This document shows positions 5,359 through 56,427 of a DNA stretch of 57,731 nucleotides, piece by piece. How positions within the stretch are numbered: position 1 is the stretch's first letter; each line of letters starts with the position of its first letter. Origin of the DNA: Candidatus Omnitrophota bacterium (GTDB lineage: Bacteria > Omnitrophota > Gorgyraeia > Zapsychrales > Fredricksoniimonadaceae); NCBI GenBank assembly GCA_903901225.1, contig CAIUQE010000009.1, positions 1 through 57,731 on the forward strand, in the 5' to 3' direction. Position numbers and translations under genes: made by a program. The notes under the pieces were generated by a model. That model was not told the DNA's origin. It did no database searches and saw only the letters and a program-made list of their open reading frames with translations.

Positions 5359-5385
5359 GCTGTATCGGGGTCTTTTCCGGAAAAA

Positions 5386-6943: not shown

Positions 6944-6985
6944 TGTAAGTCCCCTTCCTTGAAAATTTACGTTAAATGCCTTTGC

Positions 6986-8080
6986 TCAAACAAGTTCTTC
7001 CAGCGCCCGCAGGAACATCCTGTTTTCCGCCGGTGTCCCGATCGTGACGCGGATATAATGCCTTAGCCCCCAGATGCTCATGTCGCGCACGATAACGCCT
7101 TTCTTCATGAGCGCCAGCGCCGTTGCCGAACTGTCACCCGGCAGGCGCACCTGGATGAAATTCGTACACCCCTTGCTGTAGGCCACGCCACGGGCACCGA
7201 GTTTGCCAAGACCGGCGCACACAAGATCCCGCTCGCGCTCCAGCACCCTGAGGATCTTCCTGAAATAAGCCCCGTCCTTGAGCGCGGCCAACGCCGCGGC
7301 CTGGGCGATCGACGTGACGTTGAAAGGTTCGCGCGCGCGGTTCATCACGTCCGCGACCTCGACGCTCGCGGCCCCGTAACCGACGCGCAATCCCGCGAGG
7401 CCGAAAAGCTTCGAGAATGTCCGGGCCACAATGATATTGCCCCTCTTGCGGAGCAGGGCCAACGTGTCCGGATAATCCTTTTCCGAAACGAACTCAAAAT
7501 ACGCCTCATCAAAGAACACCAGCACATCCTCCGGGAAGCCCTTGAGGAACGCATCCACTTGAGCCTTGGAGATATACTGGCCCGATGGGTTGTCGGGATT
7601 CCCGATGAACACGATCTTGGTCCTGGGCGTAACGGCTTTCTTCATGGCTTCAAGGTCATAACGCAGGCCATTGAGAGGCACTTCAACCAGTTTGGCCCCG
7701 ACCGCGATCGAGGCGATGGAATAGACCAGGAATGACGGCTTCGCGACAACCACCTCATCCCCGGGATTCACGAACGCGCGCAGCGCCAGAACGATCACCT
7801 CGTCCGAACCGCAGCCGAATACCAGCTGTTCGGGGGCAATCTTCATTCGCCGGGCCAGCGCCTGGCGCAACTCGTGACAATTCCCGTCGGGATAACGGTT
7901 GACCTCGCGGGCCGCCCGCGTGATCGCCGCCAGCACCCGGGGTGATGGGCCGTAAGGATTCTCGTTCGAGGCAAGCTTGATCACGCGCTTCAACCCAAAA
8001 GCGCGCCTGACCTCGGCGATGGGCTTGCCGGGGACGTAAGGCTTGATCTTGAGGATATTTTTGTTCGCCCTGTTTTTCAT
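6986..8080 (-). CDS. hisC: Histidinol-phosphate / aromatic aminotransferase
   Basis: KLASNENPYG, NPDNPSG, DEAYFEF, RTFSKLFGLAGLRVGY. Confidence 0.95.
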   Translation of the reverse strand: MKNRANKNILKIKPYVPGKPIAEVRRAFGLKRVIKLASNENPYGPSPRVLAAITRAAREVNRYPDGNCHELRQALARRMKIAPEQLVFGCGSDEVIVLALRAFVNPGDEVVVAKPSFLVYSIASIAVGAKLVEVPLNGLRYDLEAMKKAVTPRTKIVFIGNPDNPSGQYISKAQVDAFLKGFPEDVLVFFDEAYFEFVSEKDYPDTLALLRKRGNIIVARTFSKLFGLAGLRVGYGAASVEVADVMNRAREPFNVTSIAQAAALAALKDGAYFRKILRVLERERDLVCAGLGKLGARGVAYSKGCTNFIQVRLPGDSSATALALMKKGVIVRDMSIWGLRHYIRVTIGTPAENRMFLRALEELV

Positions 8081-9144
8081 AACGCCTCGGGATAGGATCC
8101 CAGGATCTTGAGTGATTTGCACATCCCCTCCAGCTGCGTGAGGGCCTTATGGACATTCTTGTCTTCGCGATGCCCCTGAAGGTCGAGAAAGAAATAATAA
8201 TCCCACGCTTTTTTCTTGATCGGCCGCGACTCGATCCGCGTCAGATTGATCCCGTTGCGGGCGAACGGCGCGAGCATCGCGTGAAGGCCGCCGACCCTGT
8301 CGCTGATCGAAAAAACGATGGACGTGCGGTCTTTACCCGTCGGACGCGCGTCCGTCCGGGCAATGACAAAGAACCTGGTCGCGTTATGCGCGATATCCTG
8401 GACATTGTTCCTGATGACCGACAACCCGTAAATACGCGCGCAATCAGCCGACGCCAGCGCTGCCGCGTCCTTCTCGCCGGCCGCGAGCCTGGCCGCGTCC
8501 GTGGTCGACGCGACGCTCACCTGCTTGACCCGCTCCGGCGGCAAATTAGCCAAAAGCCAATTACGGCACTGGGCCAGGACCTGGGGATTGGAATATATCT
8601 TGCGGATCTTCTCCAACGCGCATTGCGCAATGACAGCGGGAGATATCTTCAACGTCAACTGGGAGCAGACCTGCAGGTCGGATTCCGCCAGCAGATCCGC
8701 TGTCGGTGTCACGGCGCCCTCGACCGAATTTTCGATCGGAACGATACCATGGTCGCAATCCCCGTCCTCCACCCGCCGGAACACTTCCGCGATGCTGCCG
8801 CAGCCGACATAGGTCAGCTGGGTGCCGAATTTTTTCACGGCCGCGGAATGGGAATTCGACCCTTCCGCCCCGAGGTAGGCAATGCGCAGGCGCTTCTCGA
8901 GAGAAATCGACGATGACATGATCTCGCTGTAGATGGCATCAAAAGCGGCAGGCGCCATAGGCCCCTTGTTCAAGGCGCGCACATGCTCCAGGACCTTGCG
9001 TTCCCGCTCCGGCGCGTACACGCCGCCGTTGACCTTGACCTTGACCTTGCCGATCTCCAGAGAAACTTTGGCCCGGTCATTAAGGAGCCCGACGATGCGC
9101 GCGTCGATCGCGTCGATGTTATGACGAAGTTTGTTGAGGTCCAT
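8077..9144 (-). CDS. pheA: Chorismate mutase/prephenate dehydratase
   Basis: N-terminal CM (LRHNIDAIDARIVGLLNDR), PIENSVEG, NATRF, ACT domain LTRIESRP; GGAGG RBS 6 nt before the ATG at 9144. Confidence 0.96.
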   Translation of the reverse strand: MDLNKLRHNIDAIDARIVGLLNDRAKVSLEIGKVKVKVNGGVYAPERERKVLEHVRALNKGPMAPAAFDAIYSEIMSSSISLEKRLRIAYLGAEGSNSHSAAVKKFGTQLTYVGCGSIAEVFRRVEDGDCDHGIVPIENSVEGAVTPTADLLAESDLQVCSQLTLKISPAVIAQCALEKIRKIYSNPQVLAQCRNWLLANLPPERVKQVSVASTTDAARLAAGEKDAAALASADCARIYGLSVIRNNVQDIAHNATRFFVIARTDARPTGKDRTSIVFSISDRVGGLHAMLAPFARNGINLTRIESRPIKKKAWDYYFFLDLQGHREDKNVHKALTQLEGMCKSLKILGSYPEAL

Positions 9145-9910
9145 TGCCATCCTCCATAACCCTTGACTGTCCGCTGGATTCTCCCAACGCCTCATCCTCC
9201 GCGACAGCAGGCAACGCGTTGGTATGTTTCTCAAGTTCTTCAATGTCCAGGCGGGTTTGTTCCCGGGCGATCTCTTCCCGGTCAACCGCCGGTGCCACGG
9301 CCCCGTTGGCGACAGCCGCCACGGGCGCCGCCTCAGAACCCGCCTCGTTCGTCCTGGCCATGAGCGCGGGAAAATCTTCCAGGCGCGGAAGGTCTTCGAG
9401 AGCGCGCAGGCCGAAATATTCCAGGAACTGGCCCGTCGTCCCATAAACGTAAGGCCTGCCAGGGACTTCCTTGCGGCCCGCGATCTTGATGAGCCCCTTG
9501 TTCAGAAGGTGCATGACCGTCCCGTCGGAATTCACGCCGCGGATCACCTCGACATCCGTCCGCGACACCGGCTGTTTATAAGCGATGATGGCCAGCACTT
9601 CAAGCCCTGCGCGCGAAAGCTTTTCTTTATGGCGGGTCTTGTAGAACTCACGCACATACTCCGCGAAAAGGGAACTCGACAGCATCTGCCACCCGCCCGC
9701 GATCTCAACAACGGTCATGCCGCGCAAGGCCGTGCCCTCGGGAACAACGTCGTAATCATGTTTGAGCCGCTCGAGAACGGCCTTGATGTCCTGCGCCGTC
9801 GAACCCGCCACCACGGACTTGATCTGATCGACCGTCACGGGTTTTTCGCTCACAAACAACAGCGCCTCGACAGCGCCCTTCAAATGGTCCGATTGTCCCT
9901 GGTCCATCAT
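9119..9910 (-). CDS. scpB: SMC-ScpAB condensin subunit ScpB
   Basis: VEALLFVSEKP, LSRAGLEVLAIIAYKQPVSR, GRPYVYGTT..FLEYFGL..L.DLP. Confidence 0.95.
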   Translation of the reverse strand: MMDQGQSDHLKGAVEALLFVSEKPVTVDQIKSVVAGSTAQDIKAVLERLKHDYDVVPEGTALRGMTVVEIAGGWQMLSSSLFAEYVREFYKTRHKEKLSRAGLEVLAIIAYKQPVSRTDVEVIRGVNSDGTVMHLLNKGLIKIAGRKEVPGRPYVYGTTGQFLEYFGLRALEDLPRLEDFPALMARTNEAGSEAAPVAAVANGAVAPAVDREEIAREQTRLDIEELEKHTNALPAVAEDEALGESSGQSRVMEDGNGPQQTSS

Positions 9911-10536
9911 GGCCTCCTCGATGCGGCGTAGATCTCGTTGAGCAGTTCTTCCACCGTGTTAATATCCTTTTTACGCGCCAGCACCCCGGCGATCATCTCA
10001 AGGGCTTCCGCTTTTTTGTATTGCAACTGCACCAGGACATCCAGCGCCTCCTGCTGGAACACCTGCTGTGACACCCCCGCCGGCCCCTTGACCGCCTGGT
10101 CGCCGATAAGGCCGAAACGCCCGACCTTACCCTGCAACTTCGCGATGACGTCCTTCGCCTTCTGCTGGCCTATTCCGGGCAGCGTCTTCAAGAAGGCGGC
10201 ATCACCTTCATCGATCGCGCGCGCGATCTCGGCGATCGACCGGTTGAGCGCCCGCACCGCGGCTTTGGGACCTATCCCGGAAACGGAAATGAATTGAAGG
10301 AAAAAATCTTTTTCCAGCTCGTTCAAAAAACCGATCAAAAACGGCGTGGCCGTGCTGGGCGTCATCTGAAAATAATGGTACGTCGTGAGGGAAATATTAC
10401 CGTTAGGGTCCGTGGCGGCGTCCAGGCGCTGAAAGACAGATGAAGGGACGAACACCTCATAGCCGAGCCCGTCAACCTCGACGACGACGGCATTGTCCTT
10501 TCTTTCAACGACCTTTCCTTTGAGGCGGGAGATCAT
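9907..10536 (-). CDS. ruvA: Holliday junction branch migration protein RuvA
   Basis: MISRLKG, GLGYEV, VSGIGPKAA and LPGIGQQKA HhH motifs. Confidence 0.94.
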   Translation of the reverse strand: MISRLKGKVVERKDNAVVVEVDGLGYEVFVPSSVFQRLDAATDPNGNISLTTYHYFQMTPSTATPFLIGFLNELEKDFFLQFISVSGIGPKAAVRALNRSIAEIARAIDEGDAAFLKTLPGIGQQKAKDVIAKLQGKVGRFGLIGDQAVKGPAGVSQQVFQQEALDVLVQLQYKKAEALEMIAGVLARKKDINTVEELLNEIYAASRRP

Positions 10537-11012
10537 GGAGTTCCCCGACCGGCATGGGCCATCGCGAGCGCCAGCGCGTCTGAAGCGTCAAGCGTAAGCT
10601 TCGCCGGATCAATTTTCAAATAGTTCGCCACCACGCGCCGTGTCTGCTCTTTTGAAGCATTGCCATTGCCAACGACGGCCTTACGCACGCGCTTGGGGCT
10701 TTCCTCAATGTAGTCCACGCCCTTCTGGGCGCATACCAGGCAGATAACGCCGCGCGCGTGCCCCATCACCACCGCGGTCATGGGATGCGCGTAATGCGCG
10801 TAAAGTTTTTCAAGAACTACAACATCAGGCTTCTGCCGGTCGATGATATCGCCCAGGTGCCGGTGGATCTTGACCAGCTTGCCGGCCAGCGGATCACGGG
10901 GGTTGGGCTCGATCGTGCCAACCTCCAGTGCCCTGACGCGCCTGTCAGGACCGCGTTCGACCACACCGTATCCCGTGGCTTTGAGCCCCGGGTCGATCCC
11001 CATCACCCGCAT
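10533..11012 (-). CDS. ruvC: Holliday junction resolvase RuvC
   Basis: MGIDPGLKATGYG, GHARGV, GNGNASKEQ, DASDALALA. Confidence 0.95.
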   Translation of the reverse strand: MRVMGIDPGLKATGYGVVERGPDRRVRALEVGTIEPNPRDPLAGKLVKIHRHLGDIIDRQKPDVVVLEKLYAHYAHPMTAVVMGHARGVICLVCAQKGVDYIEESPKRVRKAVVGNGNASKEQTRRVVANYLKIDPAKLTLDASDALALAMAHAGRGTP

Positions 11013-11029
11013 TGGCTGACCCACCCGCT

Positions 11030-11779
11030 TTACTCTTCCAGCGCGGCCATGTCTTCATCAGAGATGTCAAAATTCGCGTAGACATTCTGGACGTCTTCGT
11101 TATCCTCAAGCGCTTCGATAAGGGCCAGGATATTTTTGGCCTCCTGCCCCGCGATCTTCTTGGTGTTCGTCGGGATCATGGTGACTTCCGCCGATTTCAT
11201 GGCGATCTTCTTGGCGTCAAGCGCTTTCCTCACAGGTTCCAGCGACGTCGGTTCGGTGGTCACCTCATACACATCCCCCTCGACCTTCATGTCTTCGGCA
11301 CCCGCTTCAAGGATGATCTCCATGAGCGCGTCCTCGCCGATCGCCTTGGTCTCGACCTCGATCAAACCCTTCTTGCTGAAAATATACGCTGTCGAACCTG
11401 GCGACGCCAGGGCGCCGTTCTTGCGGGTCAACGCCGTGCGGACTTCCGCCGTTGTGCGGTTCTTGTTGTCCGTCAAGCCTTCAATGAAGATCGCCACGCC
11501 GCCGGGGCCGTAAGCGTCAAAGGTGAATGATTCATAGACAACGCCTTCCACATCGCCCGTCCCCTTCTTGATGGCGTTTTCGACGTTGGTCGACGGCATC
11601 CCCAGCCCGCGCGCGCGCAGCATGGCCGTGCGCAACCGCGGATTCACATCCGGGTCCCCGCCGCCTTCTTTGGCCGCCGTGACGATCTCACGGGTTATCT
11701 TGGTGAACGCCGCGCCGCGCTTGGCATCCGTGACGCCTTTTTTATGCTTGATCTTTGCCCATTTTGAATGACCTGACAT
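11030..11779 (-). CDS. yebC: YebC/PmpR family protein
   Basis: MSGHSKWAKIKHKKG, YGPGGVA, TDNKNRT, EDVQNVYANF. Confidence 0.96.
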   Translation of the reverse strand: MSGHSKWAKIKHKKGVTDAKRGAAFTKITREIVTAAKEGGGDPDVNPRLRTAMLRARGLGMPSTNVENAIKKGTGDVEGVVYESFTFDAYGPGGVAIFIEGLTDNKNRTTAEVRTALTRKNGALASPGSTAYIFSKKGLIEVETKAIGEDALMEIILEAGAEDMKVEGDVYEVTTEPTSLEPVRKALDAKKIAMKSAEVTMIPTNTKKIAGQEAKNILALIEALEDNEDVQNVYANFDISDEDMAALEE

Positions 11780-44229: not shown

Positions 44230-45387
44230 TTAAACCTTGCCCGCCTGTTCATAAACCGCTTCAAGTTGCTGTATTTCACGGCCGATCGAATAACGCGCCA
44301 TGGCATCAACCCTGGCCCTGGCTCCGAGGGCTGTCCGCAACCCGCTGTCCGATGCCAGCCTTCCGATCGCCTGCGCAAACGCAACAGTATCGAACGCCGG
44401 GACGACCAGCGCGTTCTTCTCGTTCAGGGCGATCTCGCGAACCCCGGCAACATCAAAAACAACCGCAGGCTTTTGATGCACCATGGCCTCGATGAGCGCG
44501 ATCGGGCACCCTTCACGACGGGATGGCATCACAAAAATATCGATCCTGTTGAAAAAATCCGTCAGGTCACTGACCCAACCGCAAAAGACCGCGCCGTCAC
44601 GCACCCCGGACTTTGCCGCCAATGCCTTGAGCGACTGAACATCGTTATCGCTGCTCGCCAGAAGAAATGAAAGTCGCGGTGTGGCAGGCAGGGCCGCGGC
44701 CGCCGCCTCGAATAAAAGATCCATGCCCTTGTCCGGAACGAACCGCGACAAGCAGCCCACAACGACATCTCCCTCTTCAGGCCTGGGCCTCAATGCCCGG
44801 GCATCACAACATGCGATCCCCAGAGGGATCACAAGCACCTTCCGGGGATCAGCACCGGCGGCAACAACCTCCTGCCCCAATTCCATGGAAACAGCCACTG
44901 TCCGGAAAAAACTTTTTCTTATCATCCAGTTGAGAAAACGGTAACAGGCCTGCTTGAAACCGCCCACACCGTTAACCCGGTCCCAAAGAAACTTCCCCTC
45001 AACAGAAGATATCCTCACAACAGAAGACCGCCCCAGAGTCGCGGCCCATGCCAGGATATCGCTGTGCAAAAAGAACGAATGCACAATATCCGGCTTCAGT
45101 TCATGCCAGGCGCGCCTCAAGCCCATGAACGCGCCGCAAAAACAACGTGTCACATGCGGGATAACCCGGATATCCTCAGCCGCGCAACCTTCCTTGATGA
45201 AAAATACGCGAAGAGCATCTTCCTGCAACGAAGAAAAAACGATAACCGGGCGAACCCTGCTTCTGTCCAGCCCGCGATAGATCTGAGCCATATGCCGGGA
45301 CGTGCCGCCAACTTCATTGAGCGCTGTGCACAACAGGACCACGACCTTGACCGCAGGCGCTTGCTGATCAAAATGCCTGGTCATCAA
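44230..45387 (-). CDS. GT4 glycosyltransferase
   Basis: GGTSRH, FVMPSRREGCPIALIEAM. Confidence 0.9.
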   Translation of the reverse strand: MMTRHFDQQAPAVKVVVLLCTALNEVGGTSRHMAQIYRGLDRSRVRPVIVFSSLQEDALRVFFIKEGCAAEDIRVIPHVTRCFCGAFMGLRRAWHELKPDIVHSFFLHSDILAWAATLGRSSVVRISSVEGKFLWDRVNGVGGFKQACYRFLNWMIRKSFFRTVAVSMELGQEVVAAGADPRKVLVIPLGIACCDARALRPRPEEGDVVVGCLSRFVPDKGMDLLFEAAAAALPATPRLSFLLASSDNDVQSLKALAAKSGVRDGAVFCGWVSDLTDFFNRIDIFVMPSRREGCPIALIEAMVHQKPAVVFDVAGVREIALNEKNALVVPAFDTVAFAQAIGRLASDSGLRTALGARARVDAMARYSIGREIQQLEAVYEQAGKV

Positions 45388-46327
45388 AGCCCCCTTTAAA
45401 AGGGATCAAAAGCGTCTTAAACAACCGCTTAAGCCCTTTGTAAAAAGAATACGGCATACACGTAAAAAGATAAAGGACGATCTTTTTCCTGTCTTGCGGC
45501 AGTAAGCGGGCAATCCGGGCCCTCGCCGCCGGGACATTGCCTTTTTCCCAATCAACCATGGCATACTGATACGCGATAACCCTCCGGCGAAAAGCGATCT
45601 CATCAACAAAATCTTTCTCAAAGGAGGGCCAAAGGCCGGCGAACTTGGAAAGCATCTGCTCTTCCTCGAGAGGGAACAGCTCCTTCTTCATCACAGTCCA
45701 GCTTTTGGCGTGCATCCTTCTTTTGGCAAGAGCCTGTTCAACATAACCAACATCAAAATAGTAGGCGATACGCAGGAAAAAGTCCGCATCTTCGACCATG
45801 CTGAAACGCTCGTCAAACCCGCCGCCGATGCCGGCCAGGACGTCACGGCGGAATATGGTGGTTGACATCGGCATTTCATAACAGGCGAGCATGGCCCGAA
45901 AAACCCTTCCCTGCGCCACTTGGCGATGAGCGATCAGTTTTGCGGAAAAACCACGCTCCGAAAAAAAGATGGCGTCAGAATAAACCGCCCCGGTTTCGGG
46001 GCTGGCCTCAAACACGTGCAACTGGCGCTCCAGCTTGGACGGCAACCAGATGTCATCACAATCCAGGAACGCAATATACCTGCCCAGGGCTTGCGCCATC
46101 GCCAGGTTCCGCGCCTGACCCAAAGGAACGGTCTTTTCACCACGGAAATACTTCAAGCGCCCGTCATAAGACCTGGCGATATCCGCGCTGTTGTCCGTCG
46201 AGCAATTGTCAAAGAAAATGATCTCCCAGTCCGCGAACGTCTGGGCATAAACACTATCGATCGCCTCGGCCAGATATTGCGCCGAGTTGTAGCAGTTCAT
46301 GACCACACTAACCACAGGCGCCGGCAT
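45368..46327 (-). CDS. GT2 glycosyltransferase
   Basis: VSVVMNCYN, DNCSTDNS, AFLDCDDIWLPSKLERQ. Confidence 0.9.
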   Translation of the reverse strand: MPAPVVSVVMNCYNSAQYLAEAIDSVYAQTFADWEIIFFDNCSTDNSADIARSYDGRLKYFRGEKTVPLGQARNLAMAQALGRYIAFLDCDDIWLPSKLERQLHVFEASPETGAVYSDAIFFSERGFSAKLIAHRQVAQGRVFRAMLACYEMPMSTTIFRRDVLAGIGGGFDERFSMVEDADFFLRIAYYFDVGYVEQALAKRRMHAKSWTVMKKELFPLEEEQMLSKFAGLWPSFEKDFVDEIAFRRRVIAYQYAMVDWEKGNVPAARARIARLLPQDRKKIVLYLFTCMPYSFYKGLKRLFKTLLIPFKGGFDDQAF

Positions 46328-47094
46328 CACCACTTCTTCCAGCGCGCCTTGCCACTGTTCCAGATGCCTTCCAACAGCTGCTGATCGCGCAGCGTATCCA
46401 TGCACTGCCAGAAACCTTCATGCCGGAACATGGCCACCTGCCCTTTGGCCGTCAATTTCTCCATCGGACTTTCTTCAAGCTCCTCATTCATCTTCAGATG
46501 ATCAAAGATCTTCCTGTTGAAAACAAAGAACCCGGCATTCACATATTCCTCGATCTGTCGCTTTTCTTTCCAGGCACTGACACGCCCGCGTTTGTCCATG
46601 TTGACCGTGGCAAAACGGGATACCGGATGCACACCCGTGAACGTCGCGATCTTTTTATGCGCCTTGTGGTACGCCACGAGATCATTGATGTTCACGTCGG
46701 AAACACCATCTCCGTACGTGACCATGAACGTATCGCCATCCACATAGGGCTCGACCATTTTAAGGCGCCCGCCCTTGGGTGTTTCCAACCCTGTATCAAC
46801 CAGAGTGACCGTCCAATCCTCACAGTGACGGCTATGGTGCAGTGTTTTCTCTTTAGAATTCAGATGGATCGTAAAATCATTGTTCATATACTCATAATCC
46901 AGGAAAAATTGCCGGATATACTCCTGCTTATACCCCAGGCACAAAACAAATTCATTATACCCGTGGGCCGCGTAACTTTTCATGATGTGCCAGAGAATGG
47001 GGCGCCCGCCGATCTCAACCATGGGCTTGGGCTTGAACTCGGTTTCTTCGCGCAGCCGCGTACCCTTACCTCCACAGAACAAAACGATCTTCAT
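46327..47094 (-). CDS. rfbF: Glucose-1-phosphate cytidylyltransferase
   Basis: CGGKGTRLREET..KPKPMVEIG, TYGDGVSD, GFWQCMDT.RD. Confidence 0.93.
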   Translation of the reverse strand: MKIVLFCGGKGTRLREETEFKPKPMVEIGGRPILWHIMKSYAAHGYNEFVLCLGYKQEYIRQFFLDYEYMNNDFTIHLNSKEKTLHHSRHCEDWTVTLVDTGLETPKGGRLKMVEPYVDGDTFMVTYGDGVSDVNINDLVAYHKAHKKIATFTGVHPVSRFATVNMDKRGRVSAWKEKRQIEEYVNAGFFVFNRKIFDHLKMNEELEESPMEKLTAKGQVAMFRHEGFWQCMDTLRDQQLLEGIWNSGKARWKKW

Positions 47095-47105
47095 AGTCAG
47101 CCTTT

Positions 47106-47555
47106 CTAACGGTGCTTGATATCCCAATCATAAGGGATCGACGGATCACACGGGTCCTTGCGCTGTATCTCATCCGGATCATGCACGATCGACGCACAGT
47201 TGGCCACGATAGCTGTTTGGTCACCGATCCCCTTAAATCCGTTCCAGACCATGGGCGGCACAGTCACCAGAGAATAATTGTCCGGCCCCAGAAAAAACTC
47301 CATGAGCTCCCCGCGCGTCGAACTTTCTATCCTGTCATCATAAAGGACGAACTTGATATTACCCAACGGGACCGCGTAATTAAGCGTCATGCGCTGATGG
47401 ATATGCCAGGCTTTCACAGCCCCCGGATGAACGGTGGAAAAATAGATCTCACCAAACCCCCTGAAATGGGGCGCGTTAGCGCGCAGCATGTGCATGATCT
47501 TGCCGCGCTCATCACATATCTGCTTCAAAGGCGTTACGATCACACCATCGATCAT
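47106..47555 (-). CDS. RmlC-like cupin NDP-4-keto-6-deoxysugar epimerase
   Basis: DERG, KAWHIH, VPPMVWNGF; located between rfbG and rfbF. Confidence 0.85.
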   Translation of the reverse strand: MIDGVIVTPLKQICDERGKIMHMLRANAPHFRGFGEIYFSTVHPGAVKAWHIHQRMTLNYAVPLGNIKFVLYDDRIESSTRGELMEFFLGPDNYSLVTVPPMVWNGFKGIGDQTAIVANCASIVHDPDEIQRKDPCDPSIPYDWDIKHR

Positions 47556-48655
47556 AGGTCCCCCTTCCCGGCCCAACACGCCCCGTTATCCCGGGCTTTT
47601 TGAATATAGGCGTCGATCTGCGCGCAACTGAGATCGAACATATTCTTCCGTCCGGCATAATACTGCCTGTACCAGAGTGCCGTGAAGGTGACGGTCTCGC
47701 GAAATGTGAGCGCCGCGGACCAGGCCAGCATCTGTTGTGTCTTGCGCGGGGACAATTGCAGCAGCAAAGCTTCCTTCTTCTTGCCGACGGCCGGCACATG
47801 CTCCCAGCAAGCGCCTTCCCACAAAAAAACAAAAAGATCCGCCAATTGACCGACCGTCTTGCTGGCGCGCTGGCGTGGGCCAAAGTTGAACGATTCCCCG
47901 ATGATCTTCGTCTGTCCTTGCAACAAACAGGCGCCCAGCCATAAATATCCGCTCAACGGCTCAAGGACATGCTGCCATGGGCGCGTGGCCTGCGGACTGC
48001 GGATGACAGCCTTCTTTCCCTGGCTCCAGGCACGGACACAATCCGGAACGATACGATCCTTAGCCCAATCACCGCCACCGATCACATTGCCCGCGCGGGC
48101 TGTGGCCATCCGCGTTTTATCCTGATGGGCAAAAAACGACCTGTAGTAAGAACTGCAAACAATTTCGGCGCACCCTTTGGAAGCGCTGTAAGGATCTTCA
48201 CCGCCCATGCGGTCATCCTCGGCATAACCGCGCGCCGTTCCAATATTCTCGTAACATTTGTCACTGGTGATCATCACCACGGCCTCGACCGACGGCAAAT
48301 GACGAACACATTCAAGCACGTTGACTGTTCCGCCGACATTCGTATCAAAAGTATTTTTCGGGCCCTCATACGACGTCCGCACGATCGGTTGCGCCGCCAG
48401 ATGAAAGACGACCTGCGGCTTGAATACCTTAAAAACATTTTCCAGCTGCCTGTAATTTACTACATCACCCTGGTAATGACGAATCTTTTTCTTCAGCTTC
48501 AGCACATCGAACAGGCAGGGATCAGAGGGCAGATACTTGGAAAATCCCGCCACCTCAGCCCCCATCTTGACAAGCCACAATGTCAGCCAGGCCCCCTTAA
48601 ATCCGGTGTGGCCTGTCACAAGAACGCGCTTGCCTCTATACGCGTTATTAAACAT
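47552..48655 (-). CDS. rfbG: CDP-glucose 4,6-dehydratase
   Basis: VTGHTGFKGAWL, HLAAQPIV, TSDKCY, DPYSASKG, GNVIGGGDW, RPWQHVLEPLSGY. Confidence 0.95.
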   Translation of the reverse strand: MFNNAYRGKRVLVTGHTGFKGAWLTLWLVKMGAEVAGFSKYLPSDPCLFDVLKLKKKIRHYQGDVVNYRQLENVFKVFKPQVVFHLAAQPIVRTSYEGPKNTFDTNVGGTVNVLECVRHLPSVEAVVMITSDKCYENIGTARGYAEDDRMGGEDPYSASKGCAEIVCSSYYRSFFAHQDKTRMATARAGNVIGGGDWAKDRIVPDCVRAWSQGKKAVIRSPQATRPWQHVLEPLSGYLWLGACLLQGQTKIIGESFNFGPRQRASKTVGQLADLFVFLWEGACWEHVPAVGKKKEALLLQLSPRKTQQMLAWSAALTFRETVTFTALWYRQYYAGRKNMFDLSCAQIDAYIQKARDNGACWAGKGDL

Positions 48656-49778
48656 GCGCCGCCGCCTGTTTAAAGAATTTCTTTATCTCAGCGGCAATAT
48701 ATTTTTGTTCCGCGGACGTGACCGCCGGATGAAGCGGCAGGGAAAGGATCTCCTGATAAACACCTTCTGTCACGGGCAACCGCCACTTACCTTTACCAAA
48801 ATATGTCAGATAATGGTTCGGATAATAATGGATGCCTGTCTCAATCCCCTTGTCCGCCAAATATCCCTTCAGCGCGTCCCTGCGGCCTCCCTTGACCCTG
48901 ATGACGTAAATGTGCGGCAACGTATCGCTGTAATCATCTTCAAACAAAGAGACCTCTTCGACGCCATCTAAAAGATCATTGTATTTCCGGGCAAGCTTCT
49001 GGCGGGCGGGTTTGAATTCTTTTTCAAGCCTTTCCAGCTGGACCATGCCAATGGCCGCGTTGATGTTGCTCATGTGGTAACGATAGCCCTGATGAAAAAC
49101 ATCAAACTGCCAGCTCCGCTGCCCCTGATATCTTTTTTCAGTATCTTTATGCACACCCACAAGCCGCGCGTCCTTCACGCGCTCCGCCACCCCGGCATCC
49201 TGCGTAATGACCGCGCCGCCCTCACCCGCCGTGATGTTCTTGATGCCGTCAAAACTGAAACACACAATATCCCCGAAAGAACCGATCTTTTTCCCTTGAT
49301 GAATGGTCCCGAACGCATGCGCCGCGTCTTCAATGACCCTCAGGCCATGGCGCCTGGCAAAGGCGTAAATCTCATCAATATGCCCGGGCCTGCTGGCGTA
49401 ATGGACCGGCATGATCGCCCGGGTCTTCGCTGTCATTTTCTTTTTGGCATCCTTAAGGTCTATCGCGCACGTCGCGGGGACAACCTCACACGGGATCGCC
49501 CTGGCCCCCGTGGCCGTGATCGCCTGAAAGCTCCCGACAAAGGTCAGCGACTGGACAAGGACCTCGTCGCCCCGTTTGATCCCGGCGCCCATAAGCCCCA
49601 GATGAAGCGCCGCCGTACCGGAATTGACGCACATGACGTTGTTGACACCAAGATACCCGCCAAGGCGCTCCTCGAATTCCTTAACAAAGCTCCCCATACC
49701 CAGATAGCCGTCATCGATCGCCTTGCCCGCGGCTTCTTTCTCCCGTGCACCAACAACAGACTTCGATAAACGTATCAT
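48648..49778 (-). CDS. DegT/DnrJ/EryC1/StrS PLP aminotransferase
   Basis: NSGTAALHL, IEDAAHA, FSFDGIKNIT.GEGG (catalytic Lys), GIETGIHY, SLPLHP. Confidence 0.92.
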   Translation of the reverse strand: MIRLSKSVVGAREKEAAGKAIDDGYLGMGSFVKEFEERLGGYLGVNNVMCVNSGTAALHLGLMGAGIKRGDEVLVQSLTFVGSFQAITATGARAIPCEVVPATCAIDLKDAKKKMTAKTRAIMPVHYASRPGHIDEIYAFARRHGLRVIEDAAHAFGTIHQGKKIGSFGDIVCFSFDGIKNITAGEGGAVITQDAGVAERVKDARLVGVHKDTEKRYQGQRSWQFDVFHQGYRYHMSNINAAIGMVQLERLEKEFKPARQKLARKYNDLLDGVEEVSLFEDDYSDTLPHIYVIRVKGGRRDALKGYLADKGIETGIHYYPNHYLTYFGKGKWRLPVTEGVYQEILSLPLHPAVTSAEQKYIAAEIKKFFKQAAAHV

Positions 49779-49803
49779 ACGTAAATTCCCCAACCGCTTT
49801 ATA

Positions 49804-51630
49804 TCAGATCAAAAAAGCCTTCATGGTCTCATCCTGGACCGGCCCGAAATATTCCCGGCGATGCTCATTCGCGTAAAGCACAGCTTTGTGCTTATAAGAA
49901 AGATAATCGCGCATCATCCCCTGCAAACATTGTTTGATCTCCTCAGGAGCATAACACGCGCCACTTTGATCATCCCAGCCCAACGGGTCAATATTGATAT
50001 TGGTCTCACAGCCAACTTTAATGCAGGGTTTCCCTGAAAAAACAATATCAAGGACAGCCGAAGATGCGAGCACGATCCCGATGTCCGCAGATTCAAGGAG
50101 CGCTTTCATATCCCCTTTGACGACCGTCATCCAATCTTTTAAAATAACAGAACTGAACAGGTCATTCAAATCCTTTTCACGCATCATCGGATGCGGCTTG
50201 AAAATACATTTTAAACCCGGCATATCCTTAAGCGCCGCATACGTTTTCAGGACCATTTCACGGTTGGAGGACATGTCCAGAGAAAGCGGGATCAGTACGG
50301 TAAAATCTTTACCCGCAGGCCGCTGGCTTAGATCGGGCGTGTCCGCCATCAAATGTTTATAGCGCAGCGCCGGCCCTGTCAGAAGTCTTTCTCCGGGAAA
50401 ACCTTCCTGCTCAAGGATCTTTTTATAATAATTCCCGTTGCTTACGATCCGGTCAGGCAAAGCCAGGCGAGCCAGCTCACAGGCTGAAACGAACGAGCAC
50501 AACAAATTCGGCGAAAGGGCGAAGTGCTGATGTCCGATGGTGCGCGTCAAGGGGTAATGCTCCTTAAACCCCAGCTGGAACAGGCGCTCCGGCAGCATAT
50601 ATTCAAACGCATCCAAAAAATGGTCGATCCTGACGTTCCTGGCCGATAAATTCCTGACAAAATAATAATTAAGAACAGCCTCCTCAATAGCCAAAGACCC
50701 AATCTGCGCCCGCAGGAGCCTTGTGACATCCATCCCATCGACCAGCACTTTCCCAACGACTGCTTTTCTGCTCCGCCACATAACGCGAAGCGGCTGCACA
50801 TGATCGCTCCATGTCAAACAGGCTTCACGCGGCAAAACAGAGATCCCCTGACTTCCTGAAGCCAGGAGTTTCTTCATTGTCTTGAAAAAATCACGGACAG
50901 AAACATTGACCATCTCGGGAAAATAGAGCACCCGGTAGCCCTGTTTGACCAGCCACAAGGCCAAGCCCGGAAAATACCTGTCTACCAACTTCCCGTCCTT
51001 ATCAAAACAATTCTGATCGCCCCAGGTATGAATGGCATAAACCTTGCCTTCCAGCGGCGCCGCAGGAACCTGTTGGCTTAAACGCATGGCAAGCACATGC
51101 ATGATGCAGGAACGCAGTAAATACTTGAAAACGCCCACCCACCGTCCAGACGCGCCCTTTATCTCTCCGTAAGCCAGGGGTGCCCATGACCGATGCGTTC
51201 GGACCGCGGCACCTTGAGCGAGCGCTTCGTCCGCGATCGCCGCAAGCAGGGCCCGGTCATCTCCCAGGAAGGCAACGCACTCTTCCTTTTTCATCTTGCC
51301 GATAAGGTCGCGAGCGACCCTCAACCGGCAAACCATCAGGAAAAATTTGTTAACAAGAGTGTTCTTCTCAAGGATGCGGTTTGCCGCCCGGTCAAGCTTG
51401 CTGTTGCCGTCAAACAGCAGGGCAACACGGTCTATGAAAGGGCGTCGTAATGTTTTGGCCGCCTCATGGCAACGGCAACCAATCCCCTCGATCTTGAATG
51501 CCCCAATGGCGGCCAGGGAAGCAAGGCGGGAATAATCATCTCCCATATAAAAAAGCCGCGTGACACCTTCGGCCTTAACGATGTGCCTTATCCTGCTGTC
51601 AGCGACTTCTTCACCGATAAGAACGATCAT
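49804..51630 (-). CDS. Surface carbohydrate biosynthesis protein, putative ulosonate transferase (TIGR04326/LIC13510-like)
   Basis: About 608 aa; DRYFPGL, FEY..PER, GHQH, ALRY, KPHP in a C-terminal GT-B-like half. Family match from memory. Confidence 0.6.
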   Translation of the reverse strand: MIVLIGEEVADSRIRHIVKAEGVTRLFYMGDDYSRLASLAAIGAFKIEGIGCRCHEAAKTLRRPFIDRVALLFDGNSKLDRAANRILEKNTLVNKFFLMVCRLRVARDLIGKMKKEECVAFLGDDRALLAAIADEALAQGAAVRTHRSWAPLAYGEIKGASGRWVGVFKYLLRSCIMHVLAMRLSQQVPAAPLEGKVYAIHTWGDQNCFDKDGKLVDRYFPGLALWLVKQGYRVLYFPEMVNVSVRDFFKTMKKLLASGSQGISVLPREACLTWSDHVQPLRVMWRSRKAVVGKVLVDGMDVTRLLRAQIGSLAIEEAVLNYYFVRNLSARNVRIDHFLDAFEYMLPERLFQLGFKEHYPLTRTIGHQHFALSPNLLCSFVSACELARLALPDRIVSNGNYYKKILEQEGFPGERLLTGPALRYKHLMADTPDLSQRPAGKDFTVLIPLSLDMSSNREMVLKTYAALKDMPGLKCIFKPHPMMREKDLNDLFSSVILKDWMTVVKGDMKALLESADIGIVLASSAVLDIVFSGKPCIKVGCETNINIDPLGWDDQSGACYAPEEIKQCLQGMMRDYLSYKHKAVLYANEHRREYFGPVQDETMKAFLI

Positions 51631-51673
51631 GCCGCCCTTTTTATTGGAAAGCAAAAAAATATGTGTTTCAGGA

Positions 51674-52438
51674 TCAAGCTCCTTGCACGCGGATATCGGC
51701 GACCGTTTCAACAACATACGGCGTCAGGGATAATAGTTTTTCTTTGGAAGTTATGCCCGCATACAAACCAATGGCAGCCTTCACCCCGGCCTGCAGCCCC
51801 ATGCGCACATCGGTCTCGGCATCCCCCACCATCACGATATCCTTGAGCGCAATCCCTGTCTTTCCGGAAATGAGCTGGAGCATCTCAGGGTCGGGCTTGG
51901 AGTTCTTGACCTGATCGGCCCCGACAACAATATCGATCAACGCCTCAACACCCAGGAATTTCATGGCCACCCACGCGCGATCGGTCCTGTCCGTCGTCGC
52001 GATCGCGATCAGGCCCCCAAGTCCCTTGATCTGCCGGAGCAACGCCACCGCTCCGGGAATGGGCTTGATAAACATGGACAGCTGCCGCGCGGAAAATTCA
52101 TCCACGTCCTTAAAGATCCGGAAACAAACCTCCTGGGCATTTTCCCCATTCTTTGTGACAACATATTCCTCAGCCGCTGCCTGCACGAAAGAACGCGGCA
52201 GGATCCCCACAGGCCCTTGCGGCAACAAACGTTGCCGGGCTACATCCACGCCCATGGCAAGCATCATGGCCTTCTTGTCGAGATCCATGTCAAAATGATA
52301 ATGCCTGCAAATACCTTCCGCGCGCAAAGCGACCATGTTGGCCCAATAATGGTACAGGTCGATCAAAGTCCCGTCCTTATCAAAACAGAACAGCTTCACG
52401 CCCTTGATCACATTTCCGTTGACTGAAATATCTACCAT
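51674..52438 (-). CDS. HAD-superfamily phosphatase
   Basis: FDKDGTLID (DxD), KPDP, VGDAETD. Confidence 0.9.
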   Translation of the reverse strand: MVDISVNGNVIKGVKLFCFDKDGTLIDLYHYWANMVALRAEGICRHYHFDMDLDKKAMMLAMGVDVARQRLLPQGPVGILPRSFVQAAAEEYVVTKNGENAQEVCFRIFKDVDEFSARQLSMFIKPIPGAVALLRQIKGLGGLIAIATTDRTDRAWVAMKFLGVEALIDIVVGADQVKNSKPDPEMLQLISGKTGIALKDIVMVGDAETDVRMGLQAGVKAAIGLYAGITSKEKLLSLTPYVVETVADIRVQGA

Positions 52439-53442
52439 ATCGGCTCACCGATATTGTCATGGACAAGTTGATCCGCGATCCTGACCGCATTTTCAATATG
52501 GACGGCCTTCTCCCAGAAATCAACGGCTTCAATATCTTTTCTGATGATCTTGCGCGCGAAAGTGCCGATAGCAACGCCATCGAACCTGACACCGCACAGA
52601 TCAGCCAGTTCCGCCGTGCGGCTGTTGGTCCCCCCTGACAAAAGGACCCTGACCTTGACACCGCTTTTCATGACCACGTCCGCCACGGCTATGGCCTGCA
52701 GCGTCGTGTTAAAATCATCCGCGCCGCCGCTCATCGGGACACCGTCAGCCTGAACGATGAACCGCTCACCGGAAACCAGGCGCGCTTTCTTGACACGGTC
52801 CATGAACTGGGTATTTCCCAAATTGAGCCTGTCGAGGCACATGCTGACATAATTATCCGGTATGATCTCGTTGACCATGCGCCACTCATCCGCGATCACA
52901 TCCGTATCCGTCACCGCCGCGTGCAACTCCAGTTGCTCAGCACCCGCCTGCCGGCACTCCAGCAACAGGGACTTTAAATTACGGTCCTGGTGCTGGAATT
53001 TGATGGCATCGACCGGACATACAGCCGCACAAATACCACAGCCGATGCACTTCTTCTGAATGACGACGATCTCTTCCTCGATCGCCATTTGGGGACAAAC
53101 CTTGCGGCACTGCCCGCATTTGACGCAGGCCACCGTAATAAAGGCCTTGCGGACATGAGGATCGCCCGCCATGCCAATACTGACATTGATGAAAGGACGG
53201 ATCATGATCTTCCGCCCTAACTTTGCCGCATAAGCCTGCGCTTTATCGATGCCCTGCATCGCATGCCTGACCACATCCACATTCGCCGACACGTCAAATA
53301 ATTTTGCCCCAGCGAGCGTATAAATAAAAACAAGCTTTTCAACCTCAAGGGCATCTTCATTGCCGGCGCCGCACACCAGCTTGAAAAGTTTCCTTTGGTC
53401 GAACAATGAACTCGCAACCTCAAATCTTGTCATGGCATCCAT
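52432..53442 (-). CDS. LdpA-family 4Fe-4S dicluster protein
   Basis: FKLVCGA, YTLAGA, DPHVRKA, CVKCGQCRKVCP, CIGCGICAAVCP, QADGVPMSG, SGGTN, GVAIGTFAR match conserved blocks of cyanobacterial LdpA as I recall them. Confidence 0.82.
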   Translation of the reverse strand: MDAMTRFEVASSLFDQRKLFKLVCGAGNEDALEVEKLVFIYTLAGAKLFDVSANVDVVRHAMQGIDKAQAYAAKLGRKIMIRPFINVSIGMAGDPHVRKAFITVACVKCGQCRKVCPQMAIEEEIVVIQKKCIGCGICAAVCPVDAIKFQHQDRNLKSLLLECRQAGAEQLELHAAVTDTDVIADEWRMVNEIIPDNYVSMCLDRLNLGNTQFMDRVKKARLVSGERFIVQADGVPMSGGADDFNTTLQAIAVADVVMKSGVKVRVLLSGGTNSRTAELADLCGVRFDGVAIGTFARKIIRKDIEAVDFWEKAVHIENAVRIADQLVHDNIGEPIW

Positions 53443-53464: not shown

Positions 53465-54241
53465 TCAAAGAGCACGCCTGCGCAAATCTTTAATGATGTC
53501 GCGATAGGCATTAAGGACAATGGTCGTATCCAGCATGTATGTCAGATACCGGGCCCCGCTCTCACACAGGATGTCAAAATATTCCTTGTCCCCGGCGAAC
53601 GAACCATAGACCAATCCCGCATCCTGGATGAGCTTGGCGCTTGACCGGACAAGACGGACAACTTCTTCGTCTTTCGTTTGCCCCGGCTTGCCCAAAGATT
53701 GCGAGAGATCATACGGGCCGATGAAAACAACATCAAGCCCCTTGACCTTCACAATATCCTTCAGGTTCCGTATGCCCTCGACCCCCTCAATATGCACCAC
53801 GACCATGGTGTTCTTGTTGGCCTCCTCAGCATGCGTCGGCGCCCTTAAGCCGTAACTTCCCGCCCGGGTAAAAGGCGAATAACCGCGTTCTCCCAGAGGA
53901 TGATATTTGGAATATTTGACCGCGCGTTGCGCGTCACCGGATGTCGCCACATGAGGGATGTGGACCCCGTGGGCGCCGATATCCAGCGCCCTGAGGATAA
54001 CATGATCTTCATTGGTCGGGACACGCACCAGCGGAACAAGGCCGCATCCTTCCGCCACGCGCGCCATGTCCTGGGCTGTTTCCATACCGAGCGGCCCGTG
54101 CTCCGCGTCCAGGACGATAAAGTCCAGCCCGCTGTGAGCAATAATTTCAACAAGACCCGTCGAAGGGATGCTGCACCACGATCCCAATACTTTCTTGCCC
54201 GCCATCAATTTATCTTTAATGCCATTTGCCTTGCTCGTCAT
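53465..54241 (-). CDS. HpcH/HpaI family class II pyruvate aldolase
   Basis: DAEHGP, VRVP, LDIGAHG, HPLGERG, IEG, FIGPYDLSQSLG; ATGA-coupled to the upstream kdsB-like gene. Confidence 0.9.
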   Translation of the reverse strand: MTSKANGIKDKLMAGKKVLGSWCSIPSTGLVEIIAHSGLDFIVLDAEHGPLGMETAQDMARVAEGCGLVPLVRVPTNEDHVILRALDIGAHGVHIPHVATSGDAQRAVKYSKYHPLGERGYSPFTRAGSYGLRAPTHAEEANKNTMVVVHIEGVEGIRNLKDIVKVKGLDVVFIGPYDLSQSLGKPGQTKDEEVVRLVRSSAKLIQDAGLVYGSFAGDKEYFDILCESGARYLTYMLDTTIVLNAYRDIIKDLRRRAL

Positions 54242-54987
54242 ACGCACCCTTTTCTGTATTGTTCAACCAGTTTATCTTTACGCATAAGACCGCGAACAAC
54301 CTCAAGGTCCGCCGGAGTGTCGACACTGATATCCGCGTGCGCCACACGGACCGCCTTGATCTTGTGTCCATTCTCCAATATCCTGAGGTACTCATTGAAC
54401 TCGACCTTCTCCAGGGGGGTCTGCTCCCATGACGTATATTGAAAAAGGAAAGCTTTGCGGAAAGGGACAATGAAACTCATCTTCCACATGGTCTTGACCG
54501 GCGTGCGGGCCTCGCTCGGCAAATCTGTCCGCGAGCAATACATGATGAAATCATGAAGGTCCAGGACAGCCTTGATATCAGAACCGCTGTTCTTGACCTC
54601 ATAGGGCGTGACCAAAACCGCAACCTGGACCGCCGGATCAGCCTCAAGCGCGTCCACCGCCCGTGTCACATGATCCGGGTTAAGCAACGGCTCATCTCCC
54701 TGGATATTCACGATAATGTCCGCCTCGATCTTCCTCGCCGCTTCCGCGATACGGTCAGACCCTGTCTTATGCGCACGGCTGGTCATGATCACTTTGCCGC
54801 CAAACCCCTCGACCACGGCCTTGATCCGTTCGCTGTCCGTTGCCACATAAAGCTCATCCAAAGCCGGTGACATGCGCGCGCGGCAATACGTATGCCCGAT
54901 CATGGGCATGCCGCAAATATAAGCCAATGCTTTCTCGGGTAAACGCGATGATTCAAGACGAACGGGAATGATGCCGGCAACTTTCAT
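54238..54987 (-). CDS. kdsB: CMP-ulosonate synthetase, KdsB-like
   Basis: IIPVRLESSRLPEKAL, VATD, TGSDRIAEA, VNIQGDEPL, LRILENG, SVDTPADL. Confidence 0.85.
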   Translation of the reverse strand: MKVAGIIPVRLESSRLPEKALAYICGMPMIGHTYCRARMSPALDELYVATDSERIKAVVEGFGGKVIMTSRAHKTGSDRIAEAARKIEADIIVNIQGDEPLLNPDHVTRAVDALEADPAVQVAVLVTPYEVKNSGSDIKAVLDLHDFIMYCSRTDLPSEARTPVKTMWKMSFIVPFRKAFLFQYTSWEQTPLEKVEFNEYLRILENGHKIKAVRVAHADISVDTPADLEVVRGLMRKDKLVEQYRKGCV

Positions 54988-55020
54988 AAACACCCCTGCT
55001 TAACTCATAAGCCTGAATTA

Positions 55021-56427
55021 TTACTTGATCAACTGGACATTCGGCAAAAATATCTTTTTGACACGCACCAACTTTTTTCCTACATAAGTCCGCTTGAAAG
55101 TATTTAACAAACGCTTAAACCAATGCTTGTTATAAATTATATCTTCCCAATTATCACGATAATAACGTAACTTTCCCCTGAATTCCTTCGAATATTTCAA
55201 TACTGAATCCCTGCGTTCATTGGAAAACATATTGTAAAGCTTCTCATCAACAAGGCCCTCATCAAAACACCGGTCTCCAAGGACCGTGCCCTTATAAGGA
55301 TAAAAAATATTAACGCCACTGGACGTAAGTTTTAATTCCTGATTAAGCCGGATAGTATCCAGGATCATTTCTTCTGTTTCTCCTGGCACACCGATGATAT
55401 TCAAAGCATTTGTTTCCAACCCGAATTTTTGTGCCGCACGGAACGCCTTAACGATCATGTCCCTTGGCATCTGTCGATTCATGACCTTGTTGCGGACAAA
55501 ATCATTGCCTGACTCCACACCGATCGAAACCCTGTAACAACCCGCGTCCTTTAACAAACCGGCAAATTCCTCATCCACCACATTCGCGCGCAAGAAACAC
55601 ATGAAGGGTATCCCGATCCTTTGCTTGTACTTTTCACAAAATTCTTTCCGCCATTTCTTATCAAGTCCAAAAAGATCATCCGTGATCATGATCTTCTCCA
55701 TACCGAATCTTTCCCTTGTCTCTTCGATCTCACGGATGCTGGCCTCAGGACTACGATAACGGGGGATGTTGCTGATCCTTCCATATCGTTTGGCAATCGC
55801 ATGATTACTGCAATAGGAACATGAAAACGGGCATCCTCTGGAAAATAAAAACGTGGCATACCCAATATTTTTTATTGTTTCTCCAAAAGGGTAAACTTCG
55901 CGGTCAGGCGGCGGAAGTTCTTCCAGATTTTCAATCAAAGGCATAAGGCCATTTTGCGCCAGTTTCCCATTGACGCCATACGCGATATTCGGCGTTGTTT
56001 TCCAATCCTTCCCCTGCTCTACACAATTCATGAATTCTACAAATGCTTTTTCCGATTCACCCATGAAAAAGACATCAAGATGCTTGGACTCCAAAATACT
56101 TGCGGGCGCGATCGTTGGATGAACACCGCCACACACCGTCATGATGCCAGGATCCACTTCTTTGATCTTGTGTGCCAGTTCCTTGACAAAATGGAACTGT
56201 GAAGACACGGAAGAAAAACCGACGACATGTGGCGAAAACGTCTTTATTTCCGCGGTCACATGTTTAAACTCATCCCGCGACCGGATGATCAGTATCTTAC
56301 ATTCATAACCTGCCGCCCGGGAGGAACTCATGATAGAGGCTAATCCAAAAGAATAACAATCGTCATGAAACCCGTTAATATTCGTATAAATGAACAAAAT
56401 CCTGCTCTTCTTTGAAACGTTTTCCAT
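55021..56427 (-). CDS. Cobalamin-binding radical SAM protein (class B methyltransferase-like)
   Basis: N-terminal B12 domain (VGFSSVS, GGVHPT), RGCPFSCSYC (CxxxCxxC), GVESG, IIGVPGET. Confidence 0.9.
   Translation of the reverse strand: MENVSKKSRILFIYTNINGFHDDCYSFGLASIMSSSRAAGYECKILIIRSRDEFKHVTAEIKTFSPHVVGFSSVSSQFHFVKELAHKIKEVDPGIMTVCGGVHPTIAPASILESKHLDVFFMGESEKAFVEFMNCVEQGKDWKTTPNIAYGVNGKLAQNGLMPLIENLEELPPPDREVYPFGETIKNIGYATFLFSRGCPFSCSYCSNHAIAKRYGRISNIPRYRSPEASIREIEETRERFGMEKIMITDDLFGLDKKWRKEFCEKYKQRIGIPFMCFLRANVVDEEFAGLLKDAGCYRVSIGVESGNDFVRNKVMNRQMPRDMIVKAFRAAQKFGLETNALNIIGVPGETEEMILDTIRLNQELKLTSSGVNIFYPYKGTVLGDRCFDEGLVDEKLYNMFSNERRDSVLKYSKEFRGKLRYYRDNWEDIIYNKHWFKRLLNTFKRTYVGKKLVRVKKIFLPNVQLIK

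Follow-up and report, generated by a model that had tools for sequence, protein, structure and literature searches.

Experimental knowledge of the LdpA family comes down to redox sensing and an effect on the abundance of CikA in Synechococcus (PMC13421787, PMC6378743). A 2026 review still gives the protein's mode of action in the circadian clock as unknown (PMC13421787), a structural review of clock proteins from 2019 treats it solely as a redox sensor of the iron-sulfur kind, with no structure described (PMC6378743), and a 2017 survey of 11,264 genomes termed it unique to cyanobacteria (PMC5520375). Here we analyze an LdpA-like protein from a Candidatus Omnitrophota bacterium, encoded on the minus strand at positions 52432-53442 of contig CAIUQE010000009.1 (assembly GCA_903901225.1), the whole 57,731 nucleotides (nt) of which are referred to below as the window. 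The gene sits in an operon with sugar-acid genes, and on balance we lean toward the view that its product is a TIM-barrel enzyme wired to a ferredoxin domain, with as its substrate a phosphorylated intermediate of a CMP-ulosonate pathway that does not depend on phosphoenolpyruvate (PEP). Our literature search found no paper on non-cyanobacterial members of the family, on DUF561/Ycf23 in connection with this protein, or on the gene cassette described below; databases name some of the non-cyanobacterial relatives "LdpA C-terminal domain-containing."

Results

A distant relative of clock LdpA

From its first ATG, the open reading frame (ORF) specifies 336 residues. The database entry identical to the window protein has 333 residues and begins at M4, as do those of most homologues, and the sequence AGAGGA lies 8 nt 5' of the ATG at 53433; for these reasons the true start is probably that ATG, giving a protein of 333 residues. 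The preliminary description of this DNA, made from the letters alone, had reported a 7-nt overlap with the HAD gene (52432-52438) and a 22-nt gap from the aldolase stop, and both figures are correct for the first ATG. With the start at 53433, the gap to the aldolase stop (53465) is 31 nt rather than 22 nt. The two ferredoxin-type 4Fe-4S motifs noted at that stage can be read directly in the translation, as C106-x2-C109-x2-C112-x3-C116-P and C132-x2-C135-x2-C138-x3-C142-P. These eight Cys, Pfam Fer4 matches in two stretches, the LdpA_Fe-S-bd match, and the structural model described below delimit a 2x[4Fe-4S] ferredoxin domain at residues 103-150 (52993-53136, minus strand).

The homology to LdpA claimed in the preliminary description is significant in profile searches. 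Both LdpA domains of Pfam exceed their gathering scores, LdpA_C at 3.1e-11 (43.7 bits against a cut-off of 22.2) and LdpA_Fe-S-bd at 3e-9 (36.9 bits against 27.6), which makes the window protein a member of the LdpA superfamily, and the eight ferredoxin Cys are placed between two barrel halves as in other members. The NCBIfam equivalog model CircClkLdpA (NF045992) aligns with residues 15-314 over nearly its whole length (model positions 10-332 of 360; E = 3.3e-43), at a score of 148.1 bits that lies below the curated cut-off of 450.

A tree of 44 proteins, inferred by maximum likelihood, separates the family with 100/99 support into two deep clades and places the window protein outside the LdpA clade. 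Clade A consists of genuine LdpA (one member, from Anabaena azotica, is so annotated) together with a Sericytochromatia/Blackallbacteria group. Clade B holds the window protein, all proteins of the cassette type, stand-alone genes of Sericytochromatia, and a group from small genomes at 40% identity. The window protein, supported by its ORF, family matches, tree position, and model, is thus a real but distant relative of LdpA and not an orthologue of the clock protein. Synteny separates the clades as well: a ycf45-like AAA/PTPase gene, sometimes with an R3H domain, lies directly downstream of ldpA in every clade A locus checked, and none was found in the clade B loci searched, which comprised the genome-contig set and loci of the cyanobacterial phylum, the window and the phage loci being outside that search. 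A functional link between LdpA and the ycf45-like ATPase seems worth testing.

Sixty of the 61 Cyanobacteriota genomes sampled have exactly one gene of the LdpA family, from either clade A or clade B. With NF045992, 20 of these members score 484-630 bits, as genuine LdpA, and the rest score 100-177 bits. A single DUF561/Ycf23 gene is found in 22 of 25 Cyanobacteriota genomes, non-photosynthetic classes included. Being near-universal single copies, the LdpA-family and Ycf23 barrels look like core genes of the phylum. The idea that LdpA of Prochlorococcus might be of the operon type was rejected: 32 of 41 genomes have a clade A-like gene scoring about 285 bits, and the cassette type is seen instead in just one of them, the single-cell genome G061.

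A TIM barrel with conserved strand-end residues

An AlphaFold model built from a 32-sequence alignment (predicted local distance difference test, pLDDT, 88; predicted template-modeling score, pTM, 0.82) gives the window protein the fold of an eight-stranded beta/alpha (TIM) barrel. In this model the ferredoxin domain exits from and re-enters the loop after strand 3, between the strand at 84-90 and the helix at 156-166, on the C-terminal, catalytic face of the barrel. SGGTN (52624-52638, residues 269-273) and GVAIGTFAR (52552-52578, residues 289-297) are placed where strands 7 and 8 end, which bears out the resemblance to a TIM barrel seen earlier in the SGGTN/GVAIG segment. Phosphate sites in TIM barrels usually lie at positions like those of the GG and G-x-x-R here. 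By this analogy, and from their conservation and strand-end position in the model, the two segments (52552-52638, minus strand) are a candidate phosphate-binding site. The best Foldseek matches are generic TIM barrels (class II aldolases, DmpG, TrpA, and the carboxyltransferase [CT] domain of pyruvate carboxylase) at template-modeling (TM) scores of about 0.5, so no specific chemistry can be read from the fold.

Residue conservation was compared across the 44 family members of both clades. At the strand ends, some 20 positions, polar or glycine, do not vary in either clade, and this holds for clock LdpA as well. The invariant residues are K21 and C24 on strand 1, D50 on strand 2, S88 on strand 3, D94 and H96 in the loop leading toward the insert, E172 and H174 on strand 4, Q231, D233, and G234 on strand 6, S238 and G239, G270, G271, and N273 after strand 7, and G293, A296, and R297 on strand 8 and the following helix. 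Another set (N28, E29, S52, C202, D204, R205, R216, N245, K259, and S269) is specific to clade B. Judged from these alignments, the pattern fits what would be expected of a common ligand-binding or catalytic core with substrate contacts that are particular to each clade. A search for an active-site pocket had been suggested at the outset, and the model and the invariant strand-end residues together fit a conserved pocket. Of the 44 proteins, 40 keep the full set of eight Cys. The other four, of the Blackallbacteria type within clade A, have Arg or Lys in place of C109, the second Cys in the motif of the first cluster, a substitution suggesting that a 3Fe-4S cluster replaces one of the 4Fe-4S clusters.

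Apart from its ferredoxin insert, the barrel appears to be homologous to DUF561/Ycf23 (PF04481). The window protein itself scores 16.6-17.2 bits against a cut-off of 21.6 and over residues 12-60 only; once the ferredoxin insert is removed, 10 of 12 clade B members match the family (best 1.4e-7), and the Ycf23 alignment spans the entire barrel of the LdpA-like protein. An insert-free Pfam search at E values up to 5 matched solely LdpA_C and DUF561, with none of the DHO_dh, Oxidored_FMN, and NMO families among the hits, nor were these among the top 50 folds. Pfam likewise gave no match of the window protein to GcpE, a family that was also missing from the top 50 folds, and the full-length protein matched only ferredoxin domains among solved structures in the PDB.

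Ycf23, a barrel without any cluster, has K, D, S, E, and Q in common with the LdpA-like protein, which can be read in favor of a non-redox isomerase, epimerase, or lyase. Such an enzyme would occupy the slot of KdsD or NanE and supply the aldolase with its aldose phosphate acceptor, and the clusters would be structural or regulatory. The K, D, E, and H residues of the barrel are typical of acid-base sugar-phosphate enzymes, and when the cassette is set against the isomerase, synthase, phosphatase, and cytidylyltransferase of the Kdo scheme, elimination leaves no other member than the LdpA-like protein for the first slot. Pfam and NCBIfam scans of the window protein found none of the SIS or CBS domains of KdsD-type arabinose-5-phosphate isomerases. 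What makes this explanation unlikely in our judgment is the ferredoxin domain: none of its eight cluster ligands is lost in any of the cassette-type and clock proteins compared, archaeal to cyanobacterial, and it sits on the catalytic face of the barrel, both of which are hard to account for by a structural role alone.

A cassette of bacteria and archaea, and related genes in phages

A scan of one genome per species yielded 534 relatives, and the best 80 loci were studied. Bacterial loci come from Omnitrophota, Elusimicrobia, Planctomycetes (anammox bacteria among them), Desulfobacterota, Campylobacterota, Gammaproteobacteria, SAR11, Bacteroidota, Actinomycetota, Patescibacteria, Margulisbacteria, and two Prochlorococcus single-cell genomes, and archaeal loci from Methanomicrobiales, Altiarchaeota, Micrarchaeota, and Hydrothermarchaeota. 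The HAD gene lies directly downstream of the LdpA-like gene in 60 of the 72 loci with enough sequence, the overlaps being mostly 4-8 nt. Directly upstream, 45 of 68 loci encode a fusion protein of about 575 residues, in which a DmpG-like (HMGL-like) aldolase barrel is joined to an MptE/DUF115 (GT42-like) domain with weak similarity to the sialyltransferase CST-I.

Partner genes were counted in the 51 loci having at least 3.5 kb on both sides. HAD and the fusion aldolase are each present in 45 of these, a KdsB-like gene in 44, HpcH in 40, TIGR04326 in 39, and NeuB in 7; HAD, fusion, KdsB-like, and HpcH genes occur together in 40. The window carries the gene set that defines the cassette (KdsB-like, HpcH, LdpA-like, HAD, and TIGR04326), with the fusion gene on another contig of the genome, C1. 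The linkage of non-cyanobacterial homologues to hpcH, kdsB, and HAD genes, which the preliminary description had named as a check, is therefore strong in the loci surveyed. In the two Prochlorococcus single-cell genomes, the cassette-type gene lies near divergent KdsB-like, HpcH-like, and HAD-like genes, and no clade A LdpA was found in these incomplete assemblies.

Genes for B12-binding radical S-adenosylmethionine (SAM) enzymes recur in these loci, and one lies two genes upstream of the LdpA-like gene in the window, so the protein might be conceived of as a large ferredoxin, a dedicated electron-transfer partner of the neighboring radical SAM enzymes with no catalytic activity of its own. 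The counts make this improbable: B12-radical SAM genes are present in 23 of the 51 loci, as against 45 for HAD, and it is to HAD, not to the radical SAM gene, that the LdpA-like gene is tightly coupled. A barrel of 285 residues with about 20 invariant pocket residues also exceeds the needs of an electron carrier. Phage loci, described next, point the same way, with a B12-radical SAM gene in only one of 26.

Twenty-six viral contigs of IMG/VR encode a clade B LdpA-like protein of about 380 residues, at 41-49% identity. The viral genes often have a divergent HpcH-like gene upstream, with DegT-like, SDR, and sugar-modifying genes nearby; two of the 26 contigs carry a KdsB-like gene.

The host genome

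The host genome is 95% complete. It contains no KaiC as probed with TIGR02655 and, among type I and II reaction-centre genes, no Photo_RC and no PsaA/B, in keeping with the earlier supposition of a non-phototroph with no kai genes nearby. PF06745 was dropped as a KaiC probe; it proved too general, matching genes of the RecA/RadA type, and TIGR02655 was used instead. These results bear on the possibility that the protein is a redox sensor or regulator that tunes the pathway or its proteins to the cellular redox state, as is held for clock LdpA. Redox sensing, with the effect on CikA abundance, is the only thing known experimentally of the family (PMC13421787, PMC6378743), but the host has no Kai partner for such a sensor, Pfam finds no DNA-binding or signaling domain in the window protein, the gene is placed within an enzyme operon with overlapping stop and start codons, and phages carry it along with biosynthetic genes. 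We accordingly give a sensory role very little weight.

A canonical KdsA gene adjoins a second KdsB gene on contig C2, of which the KdsB-like gene of the window is a paralogue, and two NeuB genes lie on contig C1. With canonical KdsA and KdsB encoded elsewhere in the genome, the cassette is an additional and separate pathway. The fusion aldolase gene occupies C1:1666-3447 and is followed by a DltB-like MBOAT gene (C1:87-1625). MBOAT genes are commonly paired with genes for DUF1574 proteins. Given that a DUF1574 gene ends the window and the MBOAT gene, on the matching strand, starts C1, the two contigs probably adjoin, which would bring the fusion aldolase into the LdpA-like gene cluster. Further along C1, positions 4075-11167 extend the glycan island with genes for an MsbA/PglK-like ABC exporter, a further B12-radical SAM enzyme, a second HAD, an ATP-grasp protein, and a methyltransferase, as well as a NeuB/PseI-type synthase. 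A full-length LdpA-like copy is present in only 3 of 61 genomes of the host phylum, a patchy distribution that is typical of surface-glycan genes.

Neighboring genes in the window

The cluster is tightly packed on the minus strand, with the transcription order DUF1574, B12-radical SAM, KdsB-like, HpcH/HpaI, LdpA-like, HAD-IA, TIGR04326, DegT aminotransferase, CDP-glucose 4,6-dehydratase, RmlC-like, nucleotidyltransferase, and GT2. The gene for the HAD-IA phosphatase (51674-52438; Pfam HAD), the start of which overlaps the LdpA-like stop by 7 nt, encodes the catalytic residues D20/D22, K181, and D206/D210, conserved in 63 orthologues, and several conserved Arg in the cap; the closest solved structure is that of the sugar-phosphate phosphatase TM_1254. 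The HpcH/HpaI class II pyruvate aldolase (53465-54247; Pfam 5e-32, HpaI 2e-46) retains the DAEH, VRV, IEG, and GPYDLS motifs, known from solved structures of the HpcH family, when aligned with 2-dehydro-3-deoxyglucarate aldolase. From these residues, both cassette neighbors look catalytically competent. The KdsB-like CMP-ulosonate cytidylyltransferase (54238-54993) matches CTP_transf_3 at 1.6e-44 and NF003952 at 233.6 bits against a cut-off of 193.

Downstream of HAD, the TIGR04326-family GT-B protein (49804-51717; identified by NCBIfam, alignment, model, and Foldseek) has no Pfam match. Its model (pLDDT 89) gives GT-B matches by Foldseek and has a long N-terminal extension, and E372, P421, R452, H509, and P510 are invariant, the last two within a K-x-H-P motif. 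An HP motif is typical of CMP-sugar-acid transferases, and the protein is a candidate for such a transferase. The remaining genes, also on the minus strand, encode a B12-binding radical SAM enzyme (55021-56427; profile matches), which is a variable accessory of the cassette, the DUF1574 protein at the contig end (56458-57663; Pfam), which probably has the MBOAT protein of C1 as its partner, and, at 45368-49793, the CDP-6-deoxyhexose set of DegT, CDP-glucose 4,6-dehydratase, RmlC-like, nucleotidyltransferase, and GT2 proteins (Pfam/NCBIfam).

Discussion

The pathway that we envision for the cassette (fusion, LdpA-like, HAD, HpcH, KdsB-like, and GT-B proteins) probably builds a 3-deoxy-2-ulosonic acid, similar to Kdo or sialic acid, from pyruvate without the use of KdsA or NeuB. 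The barrel of the LdpA-like protein probably binds a phosphorylated sugar or keto-acid intermediate, with the phosphate held at SGGTN/IGTFAR, and would carry out a redox step in which electrons pass by way of the two clusters. Dephosphorylation by the translationally coupled HAD would follow, and the ulosonic acid would be activated with CMP and transferred to a surface glycan. The suggestion in the preliminary description that LdpA-family proteins are enzymes is partly supported by the linkage to a sugar-acid operon, the TIM-barrel model, and the conserved residues.

Several observations weigh against a redox enzyme of this kind. The chief weakness lies in the clusters: their eight Cys are those of an ordinary ferredoxin, which leaves no free iron to bind a substrate. 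Redox chemistry would call for a flavin, a metal, or a radical partner, and nothing points to any of these. Activity is known for no close structural or sequence relative, and a PDB profile search with the insert-free barrel gave no match even at E = 10. The family also functions outside the cassette, because some clade B members stand alone, as in Sericytochromatia, or retain HAD only. The latter is the case in the small-genome group (about 1.8-2.0 Mb), which may belong to the Vampirovibrionia and where HAD lies directly downstream, the other neighbors are proA, proB, and prephenate dehydrogenase, and there is no aldolase or cytidylyltransferase. A member of that group, annotated as "LdpA domain-containing protein" of a Candidatus taxon, was seen on 215 contigs. 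Survival of the pair in this group, where other cassette genes are missing, makes LdpA-like/HAD the most persistent unit.

A wider and more tentative proposal takes in the whole LdpA family, not excepting the clock protein: all of its members would be enzymes, or binders of metabolites, in which a Ycf23-like TIM barrel is wired to a ferredoxin domain. On this view, the conserved pocket of clock LdpA would bind or turn over a small phosphorylated metabolite and in this way register the redox state, and clade B would perform an undescribed redox step of a PEP-independent route toward a new CMP-ulosonic acid in bacteria, archaea, and phages. We regard this as possible rather than probable. The promise of a new lead on LdpA of cyanobacteria, held out at the start, stands as just that: the window protein belongs to a sister clade (100/99) with different synteny, so the transfer of function to cyanobacterial LdpA is a lead and not a result. 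There is now a large non-cyanobacterial sister clade whose genes are tied to a biosynthetic operon and whose barrel shows the same conserved pocket, and the role of LdpA becomes a testable biochemical question, namely what ligand the pocket binds and what effect the pocket has on the circadian period. In the other direction, the LdpA-like protein marks the least understood step of a widespread and uncharacterized pathway for an acidic surface sugar, a class of sugars that matters in cell-surface recognition and in phage-host interactions.

Comparison with known systems

Among the closest of the systems known, clock LdpA of Synechococcus elongatus has the same full-length architecture, a barrel half, a 2x[4Fe-4S] insert, and a second barrel half, and it shares about 20 strand-end residues and all eight Cys with the window protein, although the two are only 26-30% identical. 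The contexts differ: the clock protein has a ycf45-like neighbor, whereas the window protein has HAD and aldolase neighbors in a host without a Kai system. DUF561/Ycf23 offers an apparently homologous barrel in a plainer form. K of strand 1, D of strand 2, S of strand 3, and E of strand 4 align, as do Q-x-[DE]-G on strand 6 and G-x-G-[ST] on strand 8, but Ycf23 lacks the ferredoxin insert, the GDPHxRK loop, C24, and H174, all of which the LdpA-like protein has.

In general design, the proposed enzyme resembles IspG and PreA/dihydropyrimidine dehydrogenase, in which a barrel with a phosphorylated substrate or cofactor is fed electrons by Fe-S clusters; unlike that of IspG, the clusters of the LdpA-like protein are fully Cys-ligated. 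For the pathway as a whole, the cassette matches the logic of the CMP-Kdo pathway (KdsD, KdsA, KdsC, and KdsB), with an aldose phosphate, a C3 condensation, dephosphorylation by a HAD enzyme, and activation with CMP. It departs from that pathway in that pyruvate aldolases (HpcH and DmpG-like) replace the PEP-dependent KdsA, the HAD is of type IA and not of the KdsC type, and the LdpA-like protein is without the SIS domain of KdsD.

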